From: Candidatus Eiseniibacteriota bacterium
GTDB lineage: Bacteria > Eisenbacteria > RBG-16-71-46 > JABDJR01
Assembly (NCBI GenBank): GCA_963783375.1
Contig: CAWANH010000029.1
Coordinates: 448,001-512,000, forward strand
DNA length: 64,000 nt
Direction of reading: 5' to 3'
The notes beneath the pieces were generated by a model, which searched no databases, was not told the origin of the DNA, and saw nothing but the letters and a program-made list of their open reading frames with translations. A program made the translations under genes and the position numbers. This document shows positions 41,486 through 49,572 of this stretch, one piece after another (within the stretch, counting starts at the first letter, position 1; every line of letters begins with the position of its first letter).

Positions 41486-43318
41486 ATGCCGGATCTAGCC
41501 CAGAAACTGGCCCGCTTGCCCCGTCGGTCCGGGGTTTACCTCATGAAGGACCGTCACGGGAAGATCCTCTACGTCGGGAAGGCCAAGCGGCTGGACCACC
41601 GGGTGCGCTCGTATTTCCAGGCCGGCGGGACCGACCACCCCAAGCAGGCCGCCCTGGTGTCGCGAATCCACGACGTGGAAACCATCGTCACCGACTCCGA
41701 TGTGGAAGCGCTCCTCCTGGAGATGACCCTGATCAAGGAGAAGCGCCCCGCCTACAACATCCGCCTGAAGGACGACAAGCGCTTCCCCTTCCTCAAGATC
41801 ACCCTGGGCGAGGACTACCCCAAGGCGGTGATCACCCGGCGCACCCCCCGGGACGGCTCGCGCTACTTCGGTCCCTACACCGACGCCGGGGCCCTCCGCC
41901 GGACCCTCAAGATGGTGCGCTCCATCTTCCCAATCCGCTCCTGCATGGGAGAGCGTCCCGGGCGCGGCCCCCACTACCGGGAATGCCTGGACTTCCACAT
42001 CCACCGGTGCGCCGCCCCCTGCATCGGAGAGATCACGCGGGAGGAGTACCGGGAGCTGGTGAACCGACTCATCCTCTTTCTGGGCGGGCAGGGGGAGGAG
42101 GTTCTCACCTCGCTCCGGCGGGACATGGCCGAGGCCTCGGCCAAGCTCGATTTCGAGCGGGCGGCCCGGATCCGCGACCGCATCCGCGGGGTGGAGCGGC
42201 TCATGCGCCGCCAGAAGATGCTGGACGCCCACGAGCGGGACCTCGACGTCTTCGCCTTCGCCCGCTCCGAGGACGTGGCCTACGGGGCGGTCCTCCAGGT
42301 TCGGGGGGGGACGGTTCTGGGCAAGGAGACCCGGCGCCTGCGGGGAACCGGCGGCAGCACCGACGCCGAGGTCATGTCTGCGTTCCTTTCCCAGTACTAC
42401 CGCGATCGCGACTCGACCCCCGGGGAGATCCTGGCCGCGGTCGAGCCGGCCGACCGGGACCTGGTGGTCCGGTGGCTCTCGGCGAAGGCCGAGCGCGGAA
42501 TCGAGATCCGGGTGCCCCAGCGCGGGCGATTCGCCGGCCTGGCCCGGCTGGCCGAGGAGAACGCGCGGCTGGACCTGGAGGAGGCGCGGGGGGAGCGTGC
42601 GCGAGGGGGCCTCGAACCGGCGGTCTACGCGCTCCAGAAGGCCATCGACCTTCCGCGCCCCCCGGCCCACATCGAGGGGTTCGACATCTCCAACATCCAG
42701 GGCACGAACCCGGTGGCCTCCATGGTGGTGTTCCGGAACGGAAAGCCGGCCAAGAGCGCCTACCGCCGGTACCGGATGAACTACCCGGAGGGGCCGAACG
42801 ACTTCGCCATGATGGCCGAGGTGGTGGGACGGCGGGCGGCGCGGATCGTGGCCGGCGAGTTCCCGGTGCCGGATCTCATCCTGATCGACGGGGGAGCGGG
42901 GCAGGTCGGAGCCGCGGTGACCGCGCTGGAGCAGGAGGGGCTCGCGGGGGTGCCGGTCGTGGGCCTGGCCAAGCGCGCGGAGGAGATCGTGTTTCCGGGG
43001 GGGCGGAGCACCTTGAGGTTGTCCCGCTCCGACGAGGCGCTCCGGCTCCTCATCCGGGTGCGTGACGAGGCTCACCGGTTCGCGGTGACCTTCCACCGCG
43101 CCCGCCGCGGCAAGGCGGCCCTCGCCTCGCGCCTGGACGCGGTGCCGGGGATCGGGGAGCAGCGGAAGATCCTCCTTCTGAACGCCTTCGGGAGCACCGA
43201 GGCGGTGGAGCGGGCCACTCCCGACGAGCTGGCCGGGGTTCCCGGGATCGGACGAAAGGTGGCGGCCCGGGTCCACGCCGCCCTGCACGAGGGAGAGAGG
43301 GGGTCCGATGCCGCCTAG
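41486..43318 (+). CDS. uvrC: Excinuclease ABC subunit C
   Basis: GIY-YIG 'GVYLMKD..G.ILYVGKAK.L..RV.SYF', 'LKDDK', 'IEGFDIS', 'DLILIDGG.GQ', 'RDEAHRFA', HhH repeats. Confidence 0.96.
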   Translation: MPDLAQKLARLPRRSGVYLMKDRHGKILYVGKAKRLDHRVRSYFQAGGTDHPKQAALVSRIHDVETIVTDSDVEALLLEMTLIKEKRPAYNIRLKDDKRFPFLKITLGEDYPKAVITRRTPRDGSRYFGPYTDAGALRRTLKMVRSIFPIRSCMGERPGRGPHYRECLDFHIHRCAAPCIGEITREEYRELVNRLILFLGGQGEEVLTSLRRDMAEASAKLDFERAARIRDRIRGVERLMRRQKMLDAHERDLDVFAFARSEDVAYGAVLQVRGGTVLGKETRRLRGTGGSTDAEVMSAFLSQYYRDRDSTPGEILAAVEPADRDLVVRWLSAKAERGIEIRVPQRGRFAGLARLAEENARLDLEEARGERARGGLEPAVYALQKAIDLPRPPAHIEGFDISNIQGTNPVASMVVFRNGKPAKSAYRRYRMNYPEGPNDFAMMAEVVGRRAARIVAGEFPVPDLILIDGGAGQVGAAVTALEQEGLAGVPVVGLAKRAEEIVFPGGRSTLRLSRSDEALRLLIRVRDEAHRFAVTFHRARRGKAALASRLDAVPGIGEQRKILLLNAFGSTEAVERATPDELAGVPGIGRKVAARVHAALHEGERGSDAA

Positions 43319-44303
43319 GCCGGCGGTGGCCGCCCTGCCCCCGGCCCTGGACCGGGCCCGGGAGGACTACCTGAGCTACCTGCGTTACGAACGTAGGCTA
43401 TCCGACCAGACGATTGATGCTTACGCATATGATCTCCAGGGATGGTTGAGCTGGTTGGCGGCCAGGGGACGCCGCGAGCTCGAGGGGATCTCCCGGGAGG
43501 ATCTGGAGGGGTTCATGACCGCGGAAGGGGACCGGGGGCTTTCCGGGCGCACCCTGGCCCGGCGGCTCTCCTGCGTTCGCGGTTTCCACGGATACCTCAG
43601 GCGGCGGCGTGGCGGGGAGGCGGACCCGACCGAGGGGATGGAGCCGCCGCGGCGGGGGAGGGCGCTCCCCCGGGCGCTGAGCGTGGAGGAGGCGGGACGG
43701 CTCATGGAGTCTCCCCAGGGGAACGACCCTCTGGCGCTCCGGGACCGGGCGGTTCTGGAGCTCATGTACGGCTCCGGACTCCGGGTTTCGGAGGTGCTGA
43801 CCCTCGAGGCCGGCGCTCTCCGCCTGGGGGAACGCTACGTGCGGGTGGTGGGCAAGGGGGACAAGGAGCGGGCGGTCCCCCTGACCGAGGCCTCGGCGGC
43901 GGCGATGCGGGAGTACCTGGATCGGGCGCGGGCGGGGCTCGTCCGGCGGCGGGACCCCGGTTTCGTCTTCCTGAACCGAAGGGGAGGGAAGCTCAGCCGC
44001 ATGGGTCTCTGGAGGATGCTGGGCCGACGGGCCGCCGCGGCCGGATTGCCCGGGGACTTCCACCCCCACATGCTCCGCCACTCCTTCGCCACCCACCTCC
44101 TGGAAGGCGGAGCGGACCTTCGGGTCGTACAGGAGCTACTGGGGCACGTCTCGGTCACCACCACCGAGATCTACACCCATGTGGACCGGGGGTACCTCCG
44201 GGAAGAACATCGGAGATTTCACCCGCGCAGCCGGGGAGCGGCGCCGCCCCTCGGGGAGGCGGGAGACGGGTCGAGTGGGCTTGGTCGGAAGGAGAAACCA
44301 TGA
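43308..44303 (+). CDS. xerD: Tyrosine recombinase XerD
   Basis: 'LRDRAVLELMYGSGLRVSE', 'GKGDKERAVP', 'FLNRRGGKLSR.G', 'HMLRHSFATHLLEGGADLRVVQELLGH.S..TT.IYTHV'. Confidence 0.88.
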   Translation: MPPRPAVAALPPALDRAREDYLSYLRYERRLSDQTIDAYAYDLQGWLSWLAARGRRELEGISREDLEGFMTAEGDRGLSGRTLARRLSCVRGFHGYLRRRRGGEADPTEGMEPPRRGRALPRALSVEEAGRLMESPQGNDPLALRDRAVLELMYGSGLRVSEVLTLEAGALRLGERYVRVVGKGDKERAVPLTEASAAAMREYLDRARAGLVRRRDPGFVFLNRRGGKLSRMGLWRMLGRRAAAAGLPGDFHPHMLRHSFATHLLEGGADLRVVQELLGHVSVTTTEIYTHVDRGYLREEHRRFHPRSRGAAPPLGEAGDGSSGLGRKEKP

Positions 44304-44965
44304 ACGGTCGAATCGGCGGACGGGCGACGATGCTGGCGATCCTGATCCTCTGCGTCGCGGGACCGGTCCGGGCGGCGGGGCTCGACGAATCGGGGACGGT
44401 AGGGCTCAGCGTCTTCGGCGACTACGGGGCCATCGCCGGAAACTCCCGGTACGGGCTGGACTTCAACAACGGGGGAGGCTACGGGGTCACCCTGCGCTAC
44501 GTGGTCGGGCCCCACTGGTCGCTCGGTCTCTTCTTCCAGAACCAGAGCTACGACGCGCAGGCGGGCGCGGTGAGCGGGCCGCAGACCGAGGAGGCGGCGG
44601 TCGACAAGCTGGTAATGACCGAATACATGGCCGACCTCTACTTCTACCGGGACCGGAAGGCGGACGCCTCCCAGTACCTGGTGGCGGGGATCGGCTTCTA
44701 CCGGCCGGAGGTGCGGAGCAACCAGGTGACGAACACCTCGGGGACCGTGGTCTTTCCCGGGGAGAACCTGGTGGTGTCCGCCGGGCTCGGGGTCGAGGCG
44801 TTCATCCGCGAGGACTGGGGGATCGACCTGAGCGGCCGGGTGTTCGGATACCTGGGAAAGGGCCTCTCCGATCAGGAACTCGACAATCCCGACGTCACCG
44901 GCACCGGGAGTTTCGCGGCCGGGTTCCAGCTCCAGGCCGGCCTCTTCTACTACCTCATGCGTTAG
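44300..44965 (+). CDS. Small outer-membrane beta-barrel protein
   Basis: SD GGAG and an ATGA overlap; signal peptide; amphipathic beta strands; aromatic C-terminal strand 'QAGLFYYLMR'. Confidence 0.65.
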   Translation: MNGRIGGRATMLAILILCVAGPVRAAGLDESGTVGLSVFGDYGAIAGNSRYGLDFNNGGGYGVTLRYVVGPHWSLGLFFQNQSYDAQAGAVSGPQTEEAAVDKLVMTEYMADLYFYRDRKADASQYLVAGIGFYRPEVRSNQVTNTSGTVVFPGENLVVSAGLGVEAFIREDWGIDLSGRVFGYLGKGLSDQELDNPDVTGTGSFAAGFQLQAGLFYYLMR

Positions 44966-44977
44966 ACCGGACGAAGC

Positions 44978-46948
44978 ATGGCCGAGAAACACACCTATCA
45001 GGTCGGGGACAAGGTCCACCACGGCGACTTCGGCGAGGGGTTGGTGGTGGAGATCCGCGACCGCCCGTTCTACGACATCCTCGAGGTGGTGTTTCCGGTC
45101 GGGGTCAAGCGTCTCACCAGCATCCATCCCCTCCTTCGCCCGAAGCCGGCGGTCCCCGATCCTCCGCCGCCCAAGTCCAAGCGAAGCCGGCGACGGAGAA
45201 AGGCCCGGAAGGAAGATGACGGGAACGGGAACGGTTCGCGGCTTCCCTACGTGCACCTCGACCGGGACACCCTGGAGCTTCTAAAGCGGGCGCGGAAGAA
45301 GGAGGCCGAGCCCCTGGAGGACTACCGTCTGCTCCTCGACGCCGAGGAGCTCGCCGCGCGCCGGGGGTTCGAGCGGCTCATGTGCCTCGATCAGCTTCAC
45401 GGGGTGGAGAAGCTCGACTACCAGAAGCAGGCCTGCCTGCGGGTGCTCCGGGAGATGCGGGGGCGGGGGCTCCTGGCCGACGAAGTGGGATTGGGCAAGA
45501 CCATCGAGGCGGGCATGATCCTCAAGGAGTACATGCTGCGAGGCCTCGTCCACCGCGTGCTGGTCCTGGTGCCGGCCAGCCTCACCATCCAGTGGCGGGA
45601 AGAGCTGGCCACCAAGTTCGGCCTGGACTTCGCGATCGCCGGTCGGCGCGGCGACTGGGCCGAACACCCCTTTCTCATCTGCTCCCTGGACACCGCCAAG
45701 ACCGCCCGGAACCGGAGCCGCCTCCTCGGCAACCCCTTCGACCTGGTCATCGTGGACGAGGCCCATCGCCTGCGAAACCACCAGACCCTGGCCTGGAAGT
45801 TCGTGGCCGCGGTGAACAGCAAGTACCTTCTGCTTCTCACCGCCACCCCGGTGCAGAACGATCTCCGGGAGCTCTACAACCTGGTGAACCTCCTTCGGCC
45901 GGGAACCCTGGGGACCTACCGGAGCTTCCGCCGCCGCTACATGGTGCGGGGGGACAAGCGGCTGCCCAAGAACACCGCCGAGCTTTCGCAGCTCTTGAGC
46001 CGGGTCATGATCCGCACCACCCGGGCCAAGACCAAGATCAAGTTCCCCCGGCGCACGGTCAACATCGTCCCCTTCCAGCTCACCGCGGCCGAGCGGGAGC
46101 TCTACGACGAGGTCACCACCTTTGTGCGCGACCGTTTCCGGGACTCCGACCGCACCCAGTTCCTGAAGTGGCACTTCGTCTCGATGGTGCTCCAGAAGGA
46201 GATCGGCTCCAGCGTCCCTGCGGCCCGCCACACCCTGAACCGGGCCCGCCTGGATCCCCGCTACCGCGCCCATGGGGAGGAGCTGAACCGGCTCTACGAC
46301 ATGAGCGAGCGGGTGGAGCGACACGCCAAGCTCGAGGGACTCCTGAAGATCCTGGCCGGGGTCGAGGACAAGGCCATCGTCTTCACCCAGTTCAAGTCCA
46401 CCATGGAGTTCCTGTCCCGCCGGCTCCAGGAGGCGGGCTACACCACCGCGGTCTTCCACGGCGGACTTCCCGCCGCCGGCAAGGAGGAGGCGATCCGCGA
46501 TTTCCGCCGCCGGGCCCGGATCCTGGTCAGCACCGAGGCGGGCGGCGAAGGCCGGAATCTCCATTTCTGCCGGGTGGTGGTGAACTACGACCTTCCCTGG
46601 AACCCCATGAAAGTGGAGCAGCGGATCGGACGCGTGCACCGCCTGGGACAGACCGGAGACATCGACATCTACAACTTCAGCTCCGAGAACACGGTGGAGT
46701 CCCACGTGCTGGAGATCCTCCACCGCAAGATCAACATGTTCGAGCTGGTGATCGGGGAAATGGACATGATCCTCGGCGATTTCAGCGACCAGCAGTCCTT
46801 CGAAGCGGCGGTGTTCCAGATCTGGGCGGGGGCGCGGAATCGTCGGGACCTGGAGCGGCGCTTCCAGGAGCTGGGGGATCAGATGGCCCTGAGCCGCCGT
46901 CGCTACGAGTCCATCAAGCGGCTGGACGAAGAGATCTTCGGTGGGTAG
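44978..46948 (+). CDS. SNF2-family ATPase (YqhH-like) with N-terminal PcrA/UvrD-type Tudor domain
   Basis: 'LLADEVGLGKTIEAG', 'VPASL..QW', 'DEAH', 'LTATP.QN', 'STEAGGEG.NL', 'NYDLPWNP..VEQRIGR.HR.GQ'; N-terminus 'VGDKVHH..FG.G.VV...F.PVGVKRL'. Confidence 0.9.
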   Translation: MAEKHTYQVGDKVHHGDFGEGLVVEIRDRPFYDILEVVFPVGVKRLTSIHPLLRPKPAVPDPPPPKSKRSRRRRKARKEDDGNGNGSRLPYVHLDRDTLELLKRARKKEAEPLEDYRLLLDAEELAARRGFERLMCLDQLHGVEKLDYQKQACLRVLREMRGRGLLADEVGLGKTIEAGMILKEYMLRGLVHRVLVLVPASLTIQWREELATKFGLDFAIAGRRGDWAEHPFLICSLDTAKTARNRSRLLGNPFDLVIVDEAHRLRNHQTLAWKFVAAVNSKYLLLLTATPVQNDLRELYNLVNLLRPGTLGTYRSFRRRYMVRGDKRLPKNTAELSQLLSRVMIRTTRAKTKIKFPRRTVNIVPFQLTAAERELYDEVTTFVRDRFRDSDRTQFLKWHFVSMVLQKEIGSSVPAARHTLNRARLDPRYRAHGEELNRLYDMSERVERHAKLEGLLKILAGVEDKAIVFTQFKSTMEFLSRRLQEAGYTTAVFHGGLPAAGKEEAIRDFRRRARILVSTEAGGEGRNLHFCRVVVNYDLPWNPMKVEQRIGRVHRLGQTGDIDIYNFSSENTVESHVLEILHRKINMFELVIGEMDMILGDFSDQQSFEAAVFQIWAGARNRRDLERRFQELGDQMALSRRRYESIKRLDEEIFGG

Positions 46949-47921
46949 GGGGGACGCGCAGCCGGGGGGCCGGCACCGTTGGGTCTTCGAGATCCTGGAC
47001 CGCGCCGGCGCCACCCCCGAGGACTCGGCGGACGGGCTGTACACCTACCGGCTGGCCGACGGGTTGGTGGATCTCCTCGAGCGGGACCGCATCACCTTCA
47101 CCTTCCGCAAGCGCCAGGCGGGCGGGGGAGTGGAGCTGATGTCCCCGGGGAGCTGGCTCCACGATCAGCTTCTGGCCTACGCCCGGAAGCGCGGCCGGGT
47201 CACCCGGGGATTTCTTCCCGCCCGCCCGGACGTGGACCGGGAGCGGCTGGCTTCGGCCCGCCGGCGCGGGTTCCGGGAGCTCTCCGGACTCCTCGACCGG
47301 CGCTACGGCGTCGTCCTGGTCTTCACCTTCCGACTTGCCTACTATTCGGACCCTCCCAAGGAGATCCTGGAGACGGTGGTCTACGACTGTGAGCGGCGCC
47401 GGGTGCTCAGGCGGGCCCTCTCCCGTCGGACCTTCCACGAGGCCTCGGAGGCGCCGACCGAGACGATGGGGCCCGCCCCCGCCCCCGACCTCGACACCGC
47501 CTTCCAGGCGGCCTGGGGGGAGATCCAGGATCGGGTGGAATCGCGGGTGGGAGCCCTCCAGCACGAGGGACGCGGGCACCTGGAGGGCGAGCTGGCCACG
47601 GTGGAACGGTACTACCGGCAGCTCATCGCCGAGGAAAAGCGCCTGCAGAAGAGCCGTTCCTCCCGGAGAGGACATGAGGAGAGCCGGCGGAAGATCGAGC
47701 TCTTGAAGCTGGAGTGGGAGCGCCGGGTAAAGGAGGAGACCGAGCGTCTCCGTCCCCAGGTGGTGGCGTCCCTGAGCGCTCTGGCCCGGCTTCACGTCCC
47801 CCTGGAGCGTTGGCGGGCGGTGGTCGAGGGGAAGAACGGGTTGGAGGAGAAGGAGTTGTGGCTGGATCTGGCCCGCTCCGAGGCCTGGGAGGGGGAGGGG
47901 AGCGGAGAGGGGGGGCGTTGA
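46941..47921 (+). CDS. Hypothetical protein coupled to the SNF2 ATPase (YqhG-like position and architecture)
   Basis: Overlaps the SNF2 stop by 8 nt, has coding-like composition and a C-terminal coiled coil ('EGELATVERYY..L..E...KIELLKLEWERRVKEE'). Confidence 0.7.
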   Translation: MGRGDAQPGGRHRWVFEILDRAGATPEDSADGLYTYRLADGLVDLLERDRITFTFRKRQAGGGVELMSPGSWLHDQLLAYARKRGRVTRGFLPARPDVDRERLASARRRGFRELSGLLDRRYGVVLVFTFRLAYYSDPPKEILETVVYDCERRRVLRRALSRRTFHEASEAPTETMGPAPAPDLDTAFQAAWGEIQDRVESRVGALQHEGRGHLEGELATVERYYRQLIAEEKRLQKSRSSRRGHEESRRKIELLKLEWERRVKEETERLRPQVVASLSALARLHVPLERWRAVVEGKNGLEEKELWLDLARSEAWEGEGSGEGGR

Positions 47922-47997: not shown

Positions 47998-49572
47998 GTG
48001 AGACGACTTTGGGAAAACATGAAGCGACCCGCGTTCCAGGGGGTGGTGGCGGTCGCGCTGGCCGTCCTCATCATCCCCACCGCGGCCCGCGCGGACGTGG
48101 AGCGCATACGCGAGAAGGCGGTGGAGCTGCAGCAGAAGCTCCAGAAGCAGGCCTTCGAGGCCGACGCCAAGGTGGATCCGGCCAACTCCGCCCGAATCTA
48201 CAAGGACTACGGGTTCCTGCTGGGGAAGTCGAAAGTGGAAGAGGTGGCCGACGCCGCCAAGACCGCCCCCCGGGCCGAGGCCCTGCGCCTCTATCTCATC
48301 CGGGCCGCGGTGGGGGACGAGCTCGCGACCTACGTGGATGATCTCCGGAACTTCCAGGCCACCAACACCGCGTCCTATGGCGACCAGGACGTCCGGATGA
48401 ACGATCTGGTGGCCCGTCTCGCGGTGACCGGGGGTGAGAGCGACCGGCGGAAGCTCATGTCCGCCCTGTCACCCCTCTTCGACACCGCCGCCGTCTACCG
48501 GAACGAGGTCCTGAAACGGCGGAACGAGACCTACGCCACCTGGGGATTCGCGAACTACGCCGACTTCTACTCGACCCGGGAGGGGACCGATCTCGCCGCG
48601 GTTTCGGCCATGGCGGACGATTTCCTGACCCGATCCCAATCCATGTACGACTCGCTGTTCACCGTGATGGCGGCTCGGGTGCTCCAGACCGAGGCGCGAA
48701 AGGTCCGTTTCTACGACCTGCCTTACCTCACCCAGGGGACCGCCTACGAGGACGCATTCCCCGCCGCCGATCGCGTGGCGCGAATGCGAAGCGTCTTCAA
48801 GGGACTGGGAGTGGACGTGAAGGGTCAGTCGAACCTGACCGTGGACGTGGAAGCGCGCCCCGGAAAGGCGCTCGAGACCGGCGTCTACGCCGCCACGGTC
48901 CCGTCCGACGTTCGGGTGAGCTTCAAGCCCAGCCCCGGCAGCCGGGGAGACGACCGGCTGATCTACGCGGTGGGCGCGGCCGAGATCTACGCCCTCTCCG
49001 GCCAGACCGCCTTCGAGCCGGCCTACCTGCCCCGGGTGGCCCCCCAGGCCGCTCTGGCCTACCTGGCCCGCCTGGTCCTGGACGAGCCGGGATGGGCGAA
49101 GGCCCAGGCGAAGCAAAGCGGGTTCGATCAGAAGGCCTACGAAACCTACCGGGCCTTTGTCTCCCTCTATGAGGCCCGGTTCCTGGCCGCCCAGGCCAAA
49201 TTCGAGATCGACGCCTACCAGGGGGGAACGAACCTCGACGATACGTTCAAGACCGTGATGGAAAGCGCCACCGGAGCCCGCATCTCGTCGTCCGACTCCA
49301 AGCGGGCGTTGGCCTATCTGAGCCAGCTCGACTCCGTGGGTCGATTCCAGGGGCTCCTTCTGGCTGCGGCGGTCCGGGACCACCTCGTGGAGACCCTGGG
49401 CCAGGACTGGTACGCCGGGGGGAAGGCGGCCTCGCTCCTCACCGGCCTCTGGAAGCGGGGCGGCACCCTGACCCTCGACGACATCGGCTCGACCTGCGGG
49501 GGCGCCAAGGCCGGCGTGGACCCGCTGATCCGACACCTCAACTCCATTGTGACTCCCGGGATCTCCCAGTGA
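47998..49572 (+). CDS. Secreted M3/M32-like (gluzincin-fold) protein lacking HExxH
   Basis: SD AAGGAGG and a signal peptide; 'GF.NY.D', 'D.E.RPGK', 'VP.DVRV..KP..G..D..LIYAVGAA', 'L....G..WY....A...L..LW..G'. Confidence 0.6.
   Translation: MRRLWENMKRPAFQGVVAVALAVLIIPTAARADVERIREKAVELQQKLQKQAFEADAKVDPANSARIYKDYGFLLGKSKVEEVADAAKTAPRAEALRLYLIRAAVGDELATYVDDLRNFQATNTASYGDQDVRMNDLVARLAVTGGESDRRKLMSALSPLFDTAAVYRNEVLKRRNETYATWGFANYADFYSTREGTDLAAVSAMADDFLTRSQSMYDSLFTVMAARVLQTEARKVRFYDLPYLTQGTAYEDAFPAADRVARMRSVFKGLGVDVKGQSNLTVDVEARPGKALETGVYAATVPSDVRVSFKPSPGSRGDDRLIYAVGAAEIYALSGQTAFEPAYLPRVAPQAALAYLARLVLDEPGWAKAQAKQSGFDQKAYETYRAFVSLYEARFLAAQAKFEIDAYQGGTNLDDTFKTVMESATGARISSSDSKRALAYLSQLDSVGRFQGLLLAAAVRDHLVETLGQDWYAGGKAASLLTGLWKRGGTLTLDDIGSTCGGAKAGVDPLIRHLNSIVTPGISQ

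Follow-up and report, generated by a model that had tools for sequence, protein, structure and literature searches.

The window analysed here, a stretch of 64,000 nucleotides from a Candidatus (Ca.) Eisenbacteria genome, carries a gene for an SNF2-type ATPase with a Tudor domain of the PcrA/UvrD type at its N-terminus, followed by an overlapping gene for a partner protein. The catalytic motifs of the motor are intact, the two genes are coupled and conserved across the phylum, and the residues involved in docking are kept on both sides, in the Tudor domain and in the hairpin of the RNA polymerase subunit RpoB. The two genes constitute a YqhH-YqhG pair, similar to a RapA divided over two chains, and fall outside the RapA equivalog family. 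On balance, the module is probably what the YqhH-YqhG motor looks like in Eisenbacteria: the Tudor domain would anchor it to the RpoB hairpin, the partner would make up the rest of a RapA-like motor, and stuck polymerase would be removed through ATP turnover. Its components are the following:

44978..46948, + strand: YqhH/HepA-type SNF2 ATPase gene with N-terminal Tudor domain, 656 amino acids (aa)
44990..45139, + strand: PcrA/UvrD-type Tudor domain, residues 5-54; H15, F18, K44 and L46 align with PcrA H681, W684, K712 and L714
45140..45241, + strand: low-complexity Pro/Lys/Arg linker, about residues 55-88
45437..46648, + strand: SNF2 motor core (Pfam SNF2-rel_dom 154-382, Helicase_C 451-557), catalytic motifs intact
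46941..47921, + strand: YqhG-like partner gene, 326 aa, GTG start; its model aligns with Escherichia coli RapA 710-968

The N-terminal Tudor domain

An earlier note on this DNA had proposed a PcrA/UvrD-type Tudor domain at the N-terminus of the ATPase, quoting a string that corresponds to residues 7-46. This assignment is borne out by PF21196 (PcrA_UvrD_tudor, curated cut-off 23.9 bits), which matches residues 9-46; the score is 25.9 bits for the full-length protein and 31.3 bits for the domain by itself. The structural model of the domain has five strands and a predicted local distance difference test score (pLDDT) of 90.7, and its top three folds among 48,161 chains are the UvrD1, PcrA and UvrD Tudors (Z 9.5, 8.9 and 8.4), with a root-mean-square deviation (rmsd) of 1.5-1.9 Å over 51-53 residues; the best PDB sequence matches of the Tudor profile are UvrD/PcrA tails as well (E 6e-8). 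A phylum set was formed by the window plus 37 loci found via ATPase similarity and hand-picked across families. All 38 Tudors of this set match PF21196 at E<=1, a single one matches Tudor_RapA (E 0.16), and Tudor_1_RapA is not among the listed matches. The ATPase Tudor is of the PcrA type, not of the RapA type, with conserved residues of its own in the phylum (LE.F, often RPF[YF]D and S.HP).

In PcrA, the binding face of this domain has been mapped by pull-down, and passages of PMC5397179 report that H681A, W684A, K712A and L714A each reduce polymerase binding to near background. Alignment to PDB 5DMA gives H15, F18, K44 and L46 as their equivalents. Across the 38 Tudors the first position is always His, the second Phe (32) or Tyr (6), the third Arg (28) or Lys (10), and the fourth Leu (25), Val (8) or Ile (5), so that the residue class of the four polymerase-binding positions is kept in every one. 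The Lys of the KRL motif, which the earlier note had singled out for its role in binding, is therefore not invariant, although the positive charge that it provides is.

The ligand side of the interaction discriminates between two candidates. Passages of PMC8318588 describe binding of the PcrA Tudor to a TGE-tipped hairpin present both in SI1 of RpoB and in UvrB; the Glu is required in both, and it is more variable in UvrB than in RpoB. RpoB was matched in 117 genomes; among 50 sequences drawn from 50 of these, the hairpin tip reads TGE in 47 and SGE in three, and the intact docking hairpin that the proposal presupposes is thus in place, with Glu in 50/50. In UvrB, by contrast, Glu is found in 0/30 hairpins (TGK 14, TGN 8, TGR 3, TGQ 3, TGA 1, NGH 1), the set being the 30 best-scoring sequences from 60 genomes (loci L274-L303, domain 2; own copy L083). 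Because of this difference, the sequences favour RNA polymerase over UvrB as the ligand of the Tudor domain. The lack of the Glu in UvrB, often with Lys in its place, may also mean that the coupling between PcrA and UvrB is different in Eisenbacteria.

Stand-alone PcrA-type Tudor micro-genes, of about 55-85 aa, occur in other Eisenbacteria families (f5, f7, f8 and f11; L250-L265, e.g., L251:3416-3610 and L252:3409-3627), lying downstream of alr and ahead of cdd/deo genes in the seven loci in which the upstream gene was identified. They score 24-38 bits with the SNF2-Tudor profile, versus 14-22 bits for PcrA tails, and none was found in the source genome. These free micro-proteins might compete with the fused domain or might be where it came from. 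Transfer of the Tudor domain from PcrA itself is unsupported, since the PcrA-like frames have retained a Tudor at their end. Four unrelated proteins of 495-574 aa (P0177, P0178, P0186 and P0219) each contain six or seven PcrA-Tudor-like stretches.

Linker and motor

Between the Tudor domain and the motor lies a linker that, in 35 loci across the phylum, ranges from about 13 to 108 aa and is unconserved and of low complexity. Because it is long and variable, the linker suggests that the Tudor domain would serve as a tether rather than as a lever of the RapA type. The motor itself carries Walker A at residues 167-175, DEAH at 260, TATP at 288, motif V at 518 and motif VI at 548.

The ATPase shares 43% identity with Brevibacillus YqhH over 525 columns. 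The earlier note's statement that YqhH has no N-terminal Tudor domain proved right for the Brevibacillus protein, which has only 29 residues ahead of the aligned part. In a 24-row tree, from which Rhodovastum, L036 and three second copies had dropped out at motif extraction, the ATPase groups with YqhH-like rows with modest support (84/78), and separately from two one-piece RapAs, whose branches are long. In sequence searches of the PDB, the motor matches E. coli RapA best; against the RapA equivalog (PRK04914) it scores 200.2 bits, for a cut-off of 576.

The partner protein

The partner was described in the earlier note as a coiled-coil protein whose gene overlaps the stop of the ATPase gene. 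The overlap stands (8 nucleotides, nt, between the open reading frames 44978-46948 and 46941-47921), and so does a long helical hairpin at residues 184-270, but a coiled coil is not all there is to the protein, which is modelled as mixed alpha/beta (mean pLDDT 88.9). Taken alone, it matched nothing in scans of Pfam (E<=1), NCBIfam and PADLOC, and stays below the cut-off of PF11079 (YqhG), a family weakly matched by 3/54 partner relatives. A profile of 52 partner sequences is more informative, since it matches a Brevibacillus YqhG-family (PF11079) protein with a probability of 96% and E 4e-9 (59 bits by hmmsearch). The same profile also matches, with 39-65 bits, the genes that follow Tudor-less ATPases on plasmids of cyanobacteria, haloarchaea and alphaproteobacteria (4/4). 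By these profile matches the partner is a YqhG homologue and, together with the identity of the ATPase to YqhH, they uphold the assignment of the pair as YqhH/YqhG.

A likeness to the C-terminal part of RapA, which the earlier note had anticipated, emerges at the level of fold. The top five Foldseek hits of the partner model are all RapA (E 2.5e-7 to 6.3e-3, with rank 6 at E 0.27), and a second aligner places partner residues 8-289 onto RapA 711-968 with Z 9.9 over 233 residues, a loose match with an rmsd of 8.6 Å.

Many partners of the phylum end in a Cys-x2-Cys ... Cys-x2-Cys cluster (alignment A4). This cluster is absent from the window's partner (47800-47921) and from its order, and the partners of family f5 end even earlier. 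Natural fusions of ATPase and partner were also sought, in a weak search for longer forms; the two candidates (P0176 and L055) have garbled junctions that look like frameshift errors, and they were rejected.

Distribution and gene order

The ATPase is present in 145/151 Ca. Eisenbacteria genomes (E<=1e-100), 116 of the 118 near-complete ones among them, and the partner in 146/151. Both genes are missing from four genomes (G082, G093, G118 and G143). When five of the six genomes missing the ATPase were searched again, G084 was seen to carry the gene in frameshifted pieces. The pair is a core module of Ca. Eisenbacteria, phylum-wide and not special to the source genome.

The module sits in a constant neighbourhood, whose upstream part is:

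41486..44965, + strand: uvrC, xerD-like recombinase and outer membrane protein (OMP) beta-barrel genes; conserved operon context

In the window, uvrC ends at 43318 and overlaps xerD (43308-44303) by 11 nt; the OMP-barrel gene (44300-44965) overlaps xerD by 4 nt and is followed by a gap of 12 nt before the ATPase gene. Among 37 primary loci, the Tudor domain, xerD and the partner are found in all 37, the OMP gene in 36 and uvrC in 35. Families f3 and f5 have an extra 1.1-1.4 kb between the OMP gene and the ATPase (L041-L048, L050-L053), which is absent from the window. This fixed synteny and the near-universal presence of the two genes form a housekeeping pattern that we count in favour of a role in polymerase recycling. 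A scan of the locus for promoters and terminators gave signals at shuffle level only, and the RNA listing for the locus had no holder. Directly 3' of the partner, at 47998-49572, lies a gene for a 524-aa protein whose position is kept in several families and for which Pfam and NCBIfam scans gave nothing above cut-off.

A scan of a species collection with a Tudor pattern, built from the Eisenbacteria family and therefore not reaching divergent fusions, returned 160 relatives. The 80 that were kept are all fused to the ATPase, 73 of them with the partner and seven ending inside the ATPase. Eleven of these 80 are titled as other taxa, with Eisenbacteria-type Tudors and mostly the same synteny, and mislabelling or misbinning probably accounts for the titles. 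Of 432 representative matches, the best 150 include 21 with an SNF2 core, all Eisenbacteria-type by eye. Outside the phylum, where the distribution rests on plasmid records and collection representatives, the 25 plasmid matches to the ATPase that are listed, of 34, all start at residue 130 or later, and a search of four of these plasmid records with the Tudor profile found nothing.

The source genome has, in addition, a frame of 2278 codons whose Walker A motif is UvrD-like (C28:565605-572438) and two frames with a UvrA-like motif (C29:61953-65198 and C29:689131-692340).

Proposed action on RNA polymerase and alternative explanations

According to passages of 10.1101/2024.09.28.614012 and PMC8666675, post-termination polymerase is cleared by E. 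coli RapA, whose N-terminal domain grips the beta-prime zinc-binding domain and pulls the clamp open, and loss of this action promotes R-loops. In the mechanism that we favour, the ATPase and its partner would together form a unit shaped like RapA, in which the partner stands for RapA residues ~710-968. The Tudor domain would bind the TGE hairpin of RpoB SI1 through H15, F18, K/R44 and L46. It would act as a tether to the stuck polymerase, where the N-terminal domain of RapA acts as a rigid lever on the beta-prime zinc-binding domain. ATP turnover could then dislodge post-termination or stalled polymerase, leading to recycling and to fewer R-loops and replication conflicts.

Several observations weigh against this proposal. 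As to the docking site, the RpoB hairpin of the source genome (RpoB lobe at C22:38259-39062) has Asn for the Asp of the motif and misses the strict pattern. Moreover, most genomes carry at least two PF21196 matches, and the PcrA-like frames keep their own Tudor; conservation of the RpoB hairpin could be explained by PcrA alone, and is compatible with binding by this Tudor without proving it. As to the partner, the RapA match is loose (rmsd 8-10 Å, Foldseek template modelling score 0.27-0.34), generic helical hairpins reach Z 8-9 with the same model, and a wide structural search, whose 50 listed rows were filled by such hairpins, does not show RapA among them. Homology between partner and RapA at the sequence level is not significant (probability 2%, a brief F..R..A..E....G[HS]P-like stretch being all that they share), and the partner gave no match to the RapA_C Pfam family. 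As to distribution, one genome that is 99% complete (G082) has neither gene, YqhH pairs outside Eisenbacteria lack the Tudor domain, and so do three second YqhH-like copies at other loci within the phylum (L072-L074), two of which have a YqhG-like partner. The passages of PMC7385302 on B. subtilis HepA/YqhH give genetic data only, citing polymerase contact from E. coli RapA; for a conserved polymerase-binding domain in HepA they refer to Table S2. Finally, RapA_C is found in 13/151 genomes, and the source genome is one of them, with a one-piece RapA-like gene of its own:

L082:1175-3553, - strand (genome C29:91674-95264): shorter one-piece RapA-like gene, with weak Tudor_1_RapA and with RapA_C above cut-off; in the source genome and its order

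Since the source genome has both, the split pair and the one-piece RapA are not simple substitutes.

Among the alternatives, the one that survives best, unlikely as we consider it, is that the Tudor domain binds another hairpin protein, nucleic acid or the partner itself, the pair being a general DNA translocase or protein-DNA remodeller. PcrA/UvrD Tudors are promiscuous, with several hairpin-bearing partners of the PcrA Tudor in B. subtilis (PMC8318588, in part) and weak DNA binding by the C-terminal domain of UvrD (10.1101/2020.07.06.189035, in part). The phylum-specific Tudor residues may form another surface, and Tudor-less YqhH pairs are widespread. Nevertheless, the positions retained in all 38 Tudors are those that bind polymerase, including a basic residue described in passages of PMC5397179 as uncommon among Tudors generally. 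A hairpin at the C-terminus of the partner fails as a general ligand, given that a DxxRGE-like form occurs in 12/52 partners and [TS]GE in 5/52; the window's partner has neither, and those of family f5 end before the hairpin.

Slightly less probable still is a pair tethered to polymerase or UvrB whose main role is in nucleotide excision repair, where it would pass lesions beneath stalled polymerase on to UvrABC. The position of uvrC upstream, the existence of a UvrD Tudor-UvrB structure (7EGT) and the lowered survival of B. subtilis hepA mutants on methyl methanesulfonate under PcrA depletion (passages of PMC7385302) speak for it. So does an effect on ultraviolet survival at 30 min of a putative orthologue, a B. 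thuringiensis gene called yqhH, although the effect was reversed at 60 min (passages of PMC10054049). On the other hand, the xerD and OMP genes are no less constant than uvrC, suggesting that the gene order is inherited; Brevibacillus yqhH-yqhG adjoins gcvT and not uvrC; and the source genome has Mfd and PcrA motifs. The suggestion in the earlier note of transcription-coupled repair with UvrC is weakened by the absence of the key Glu from the UvrB hairpin in 30/30 sequences, although in UvrB this Glu is the more variable, and by the sharing of the uvrC operon with the unrelated xerD and OMP genes.

A defence module related to DISARM DrmD or BREX BrxHI is very improbable: the motor has its best profile scores with these two and Tudor-less relatives lie on plasmids, some beside mobile genes, but the scores fall far below cut-off (272.5 versus 610 and 263.6 versus 950), the partner matches no PADLOC model, and defence systems do not behave like a pair that is present in 145/151 genomes, always in the same position with housekeeping genes around it.

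Significance

Polymerase recycling by the YqhH-YqhG pair, the reading that we prefer, bears on the question of what recycles RNA polymerase in bacteria without a one-piece RapA, for which a passage of the RapA preprint (10.1101/2024.09.28.614012) proposes analogous ATPases. That a characterised polymerase-docking domain is fused to YqhH throughout the phylum points naturally to an action of YqhH-YqhG on polymerase, and the YqhG family, of unknown function, would gain a structural identity. A wider proposal, which we advance only tentatively, is that YqhH-YqhG across bacteria and archaea could be an unrecognised two-chain counterpart of RapA, and that in Eisenbacteria the pair was rewired by a UvrD-type Tudor, such that one RpoB hairpin might be contested by the SNF2 motor, by PcrA and, where a family has one, by a free Tudor micro-protein, a recruitment route different from the clamp-pulling lever of RapA. 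Both parts of the module are of known kinds and the host is uncultured. Testable handles are offered by the domain of 56 residues, its single Lys/Arg, the Glu of RpoB and the Bacillus counterpart, which is tractable.

In full-text searches, whose coverage leaves out most subscription journals, no article mentioned both Eisenbacteria and SNF2, and neither a Tudor-YqhH fusion nor a YqhG-RapA link appeared among the results listed. A passage of PMC6123443 places yqhH-yqhG beside sinR and adds nothing further. New here are the residue-level conservation of the binding face, the contrast between the RpoB and UvrB hairpins, the tether-like linker and the free Tudor micro-genes in the same phylum.

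Comparison with known systems

The closest relative of the module is the Bacillota YqhH (HepA)-YqhG (PF11079) pair, with which it shares the level of ATPase identity given above, a partner profile match and the same gene order. It differs in that the Eisenbacteria ATPase adds a PcrA-type Tudor plus linker, about 85 residues, that the partner alone falls below Pfam YqhG detection, and that the gene neighbourhood is different.

The PcrA/UvrD C-terminal Tudor (PF21196; PDB 5DMA, 7EGS, 6YI2 and 9DQS) is alike in sequence, fold and the four polymerase-binding positions. In PcrA/UvrD, however, the domain lies at the C-terminus of a superfamily-1 helicase, whereas in Eisenbacteria it stands at the N-terminus of a superfamily-2 motor, with Arg often replacing Lys712 and with extra phylum-specific motifs.

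As for defence systems, DrmD and BrxHI have a related SNF2 motor, but the Eisenbacteria motor is much shorter and belongs to a core, not patchy, module. E. coli RapA (HepA; PDB 6BOG, 8SO8 and 8T0L) provides the best PDB match of the motor, the partner model aligns loosely with its residues 710-968, and its Tudor-motor-tail order is kept across the two Eisenbacteria genes. RapA is nevertheless a single chain of about 960 aa, whereas the Eisenbacteria module consists of two chains, scores below the equivalog cut-off and has none of the RapA-type N-terminal Tudor domains that go with membership of PRK04914. While the N-terminal domain of RapA contacts the beta flap and the beta-prime zinc-binding domain, the Eisenbacteria ATPase carries a single PcrA-type Tudor on a flexible linker.

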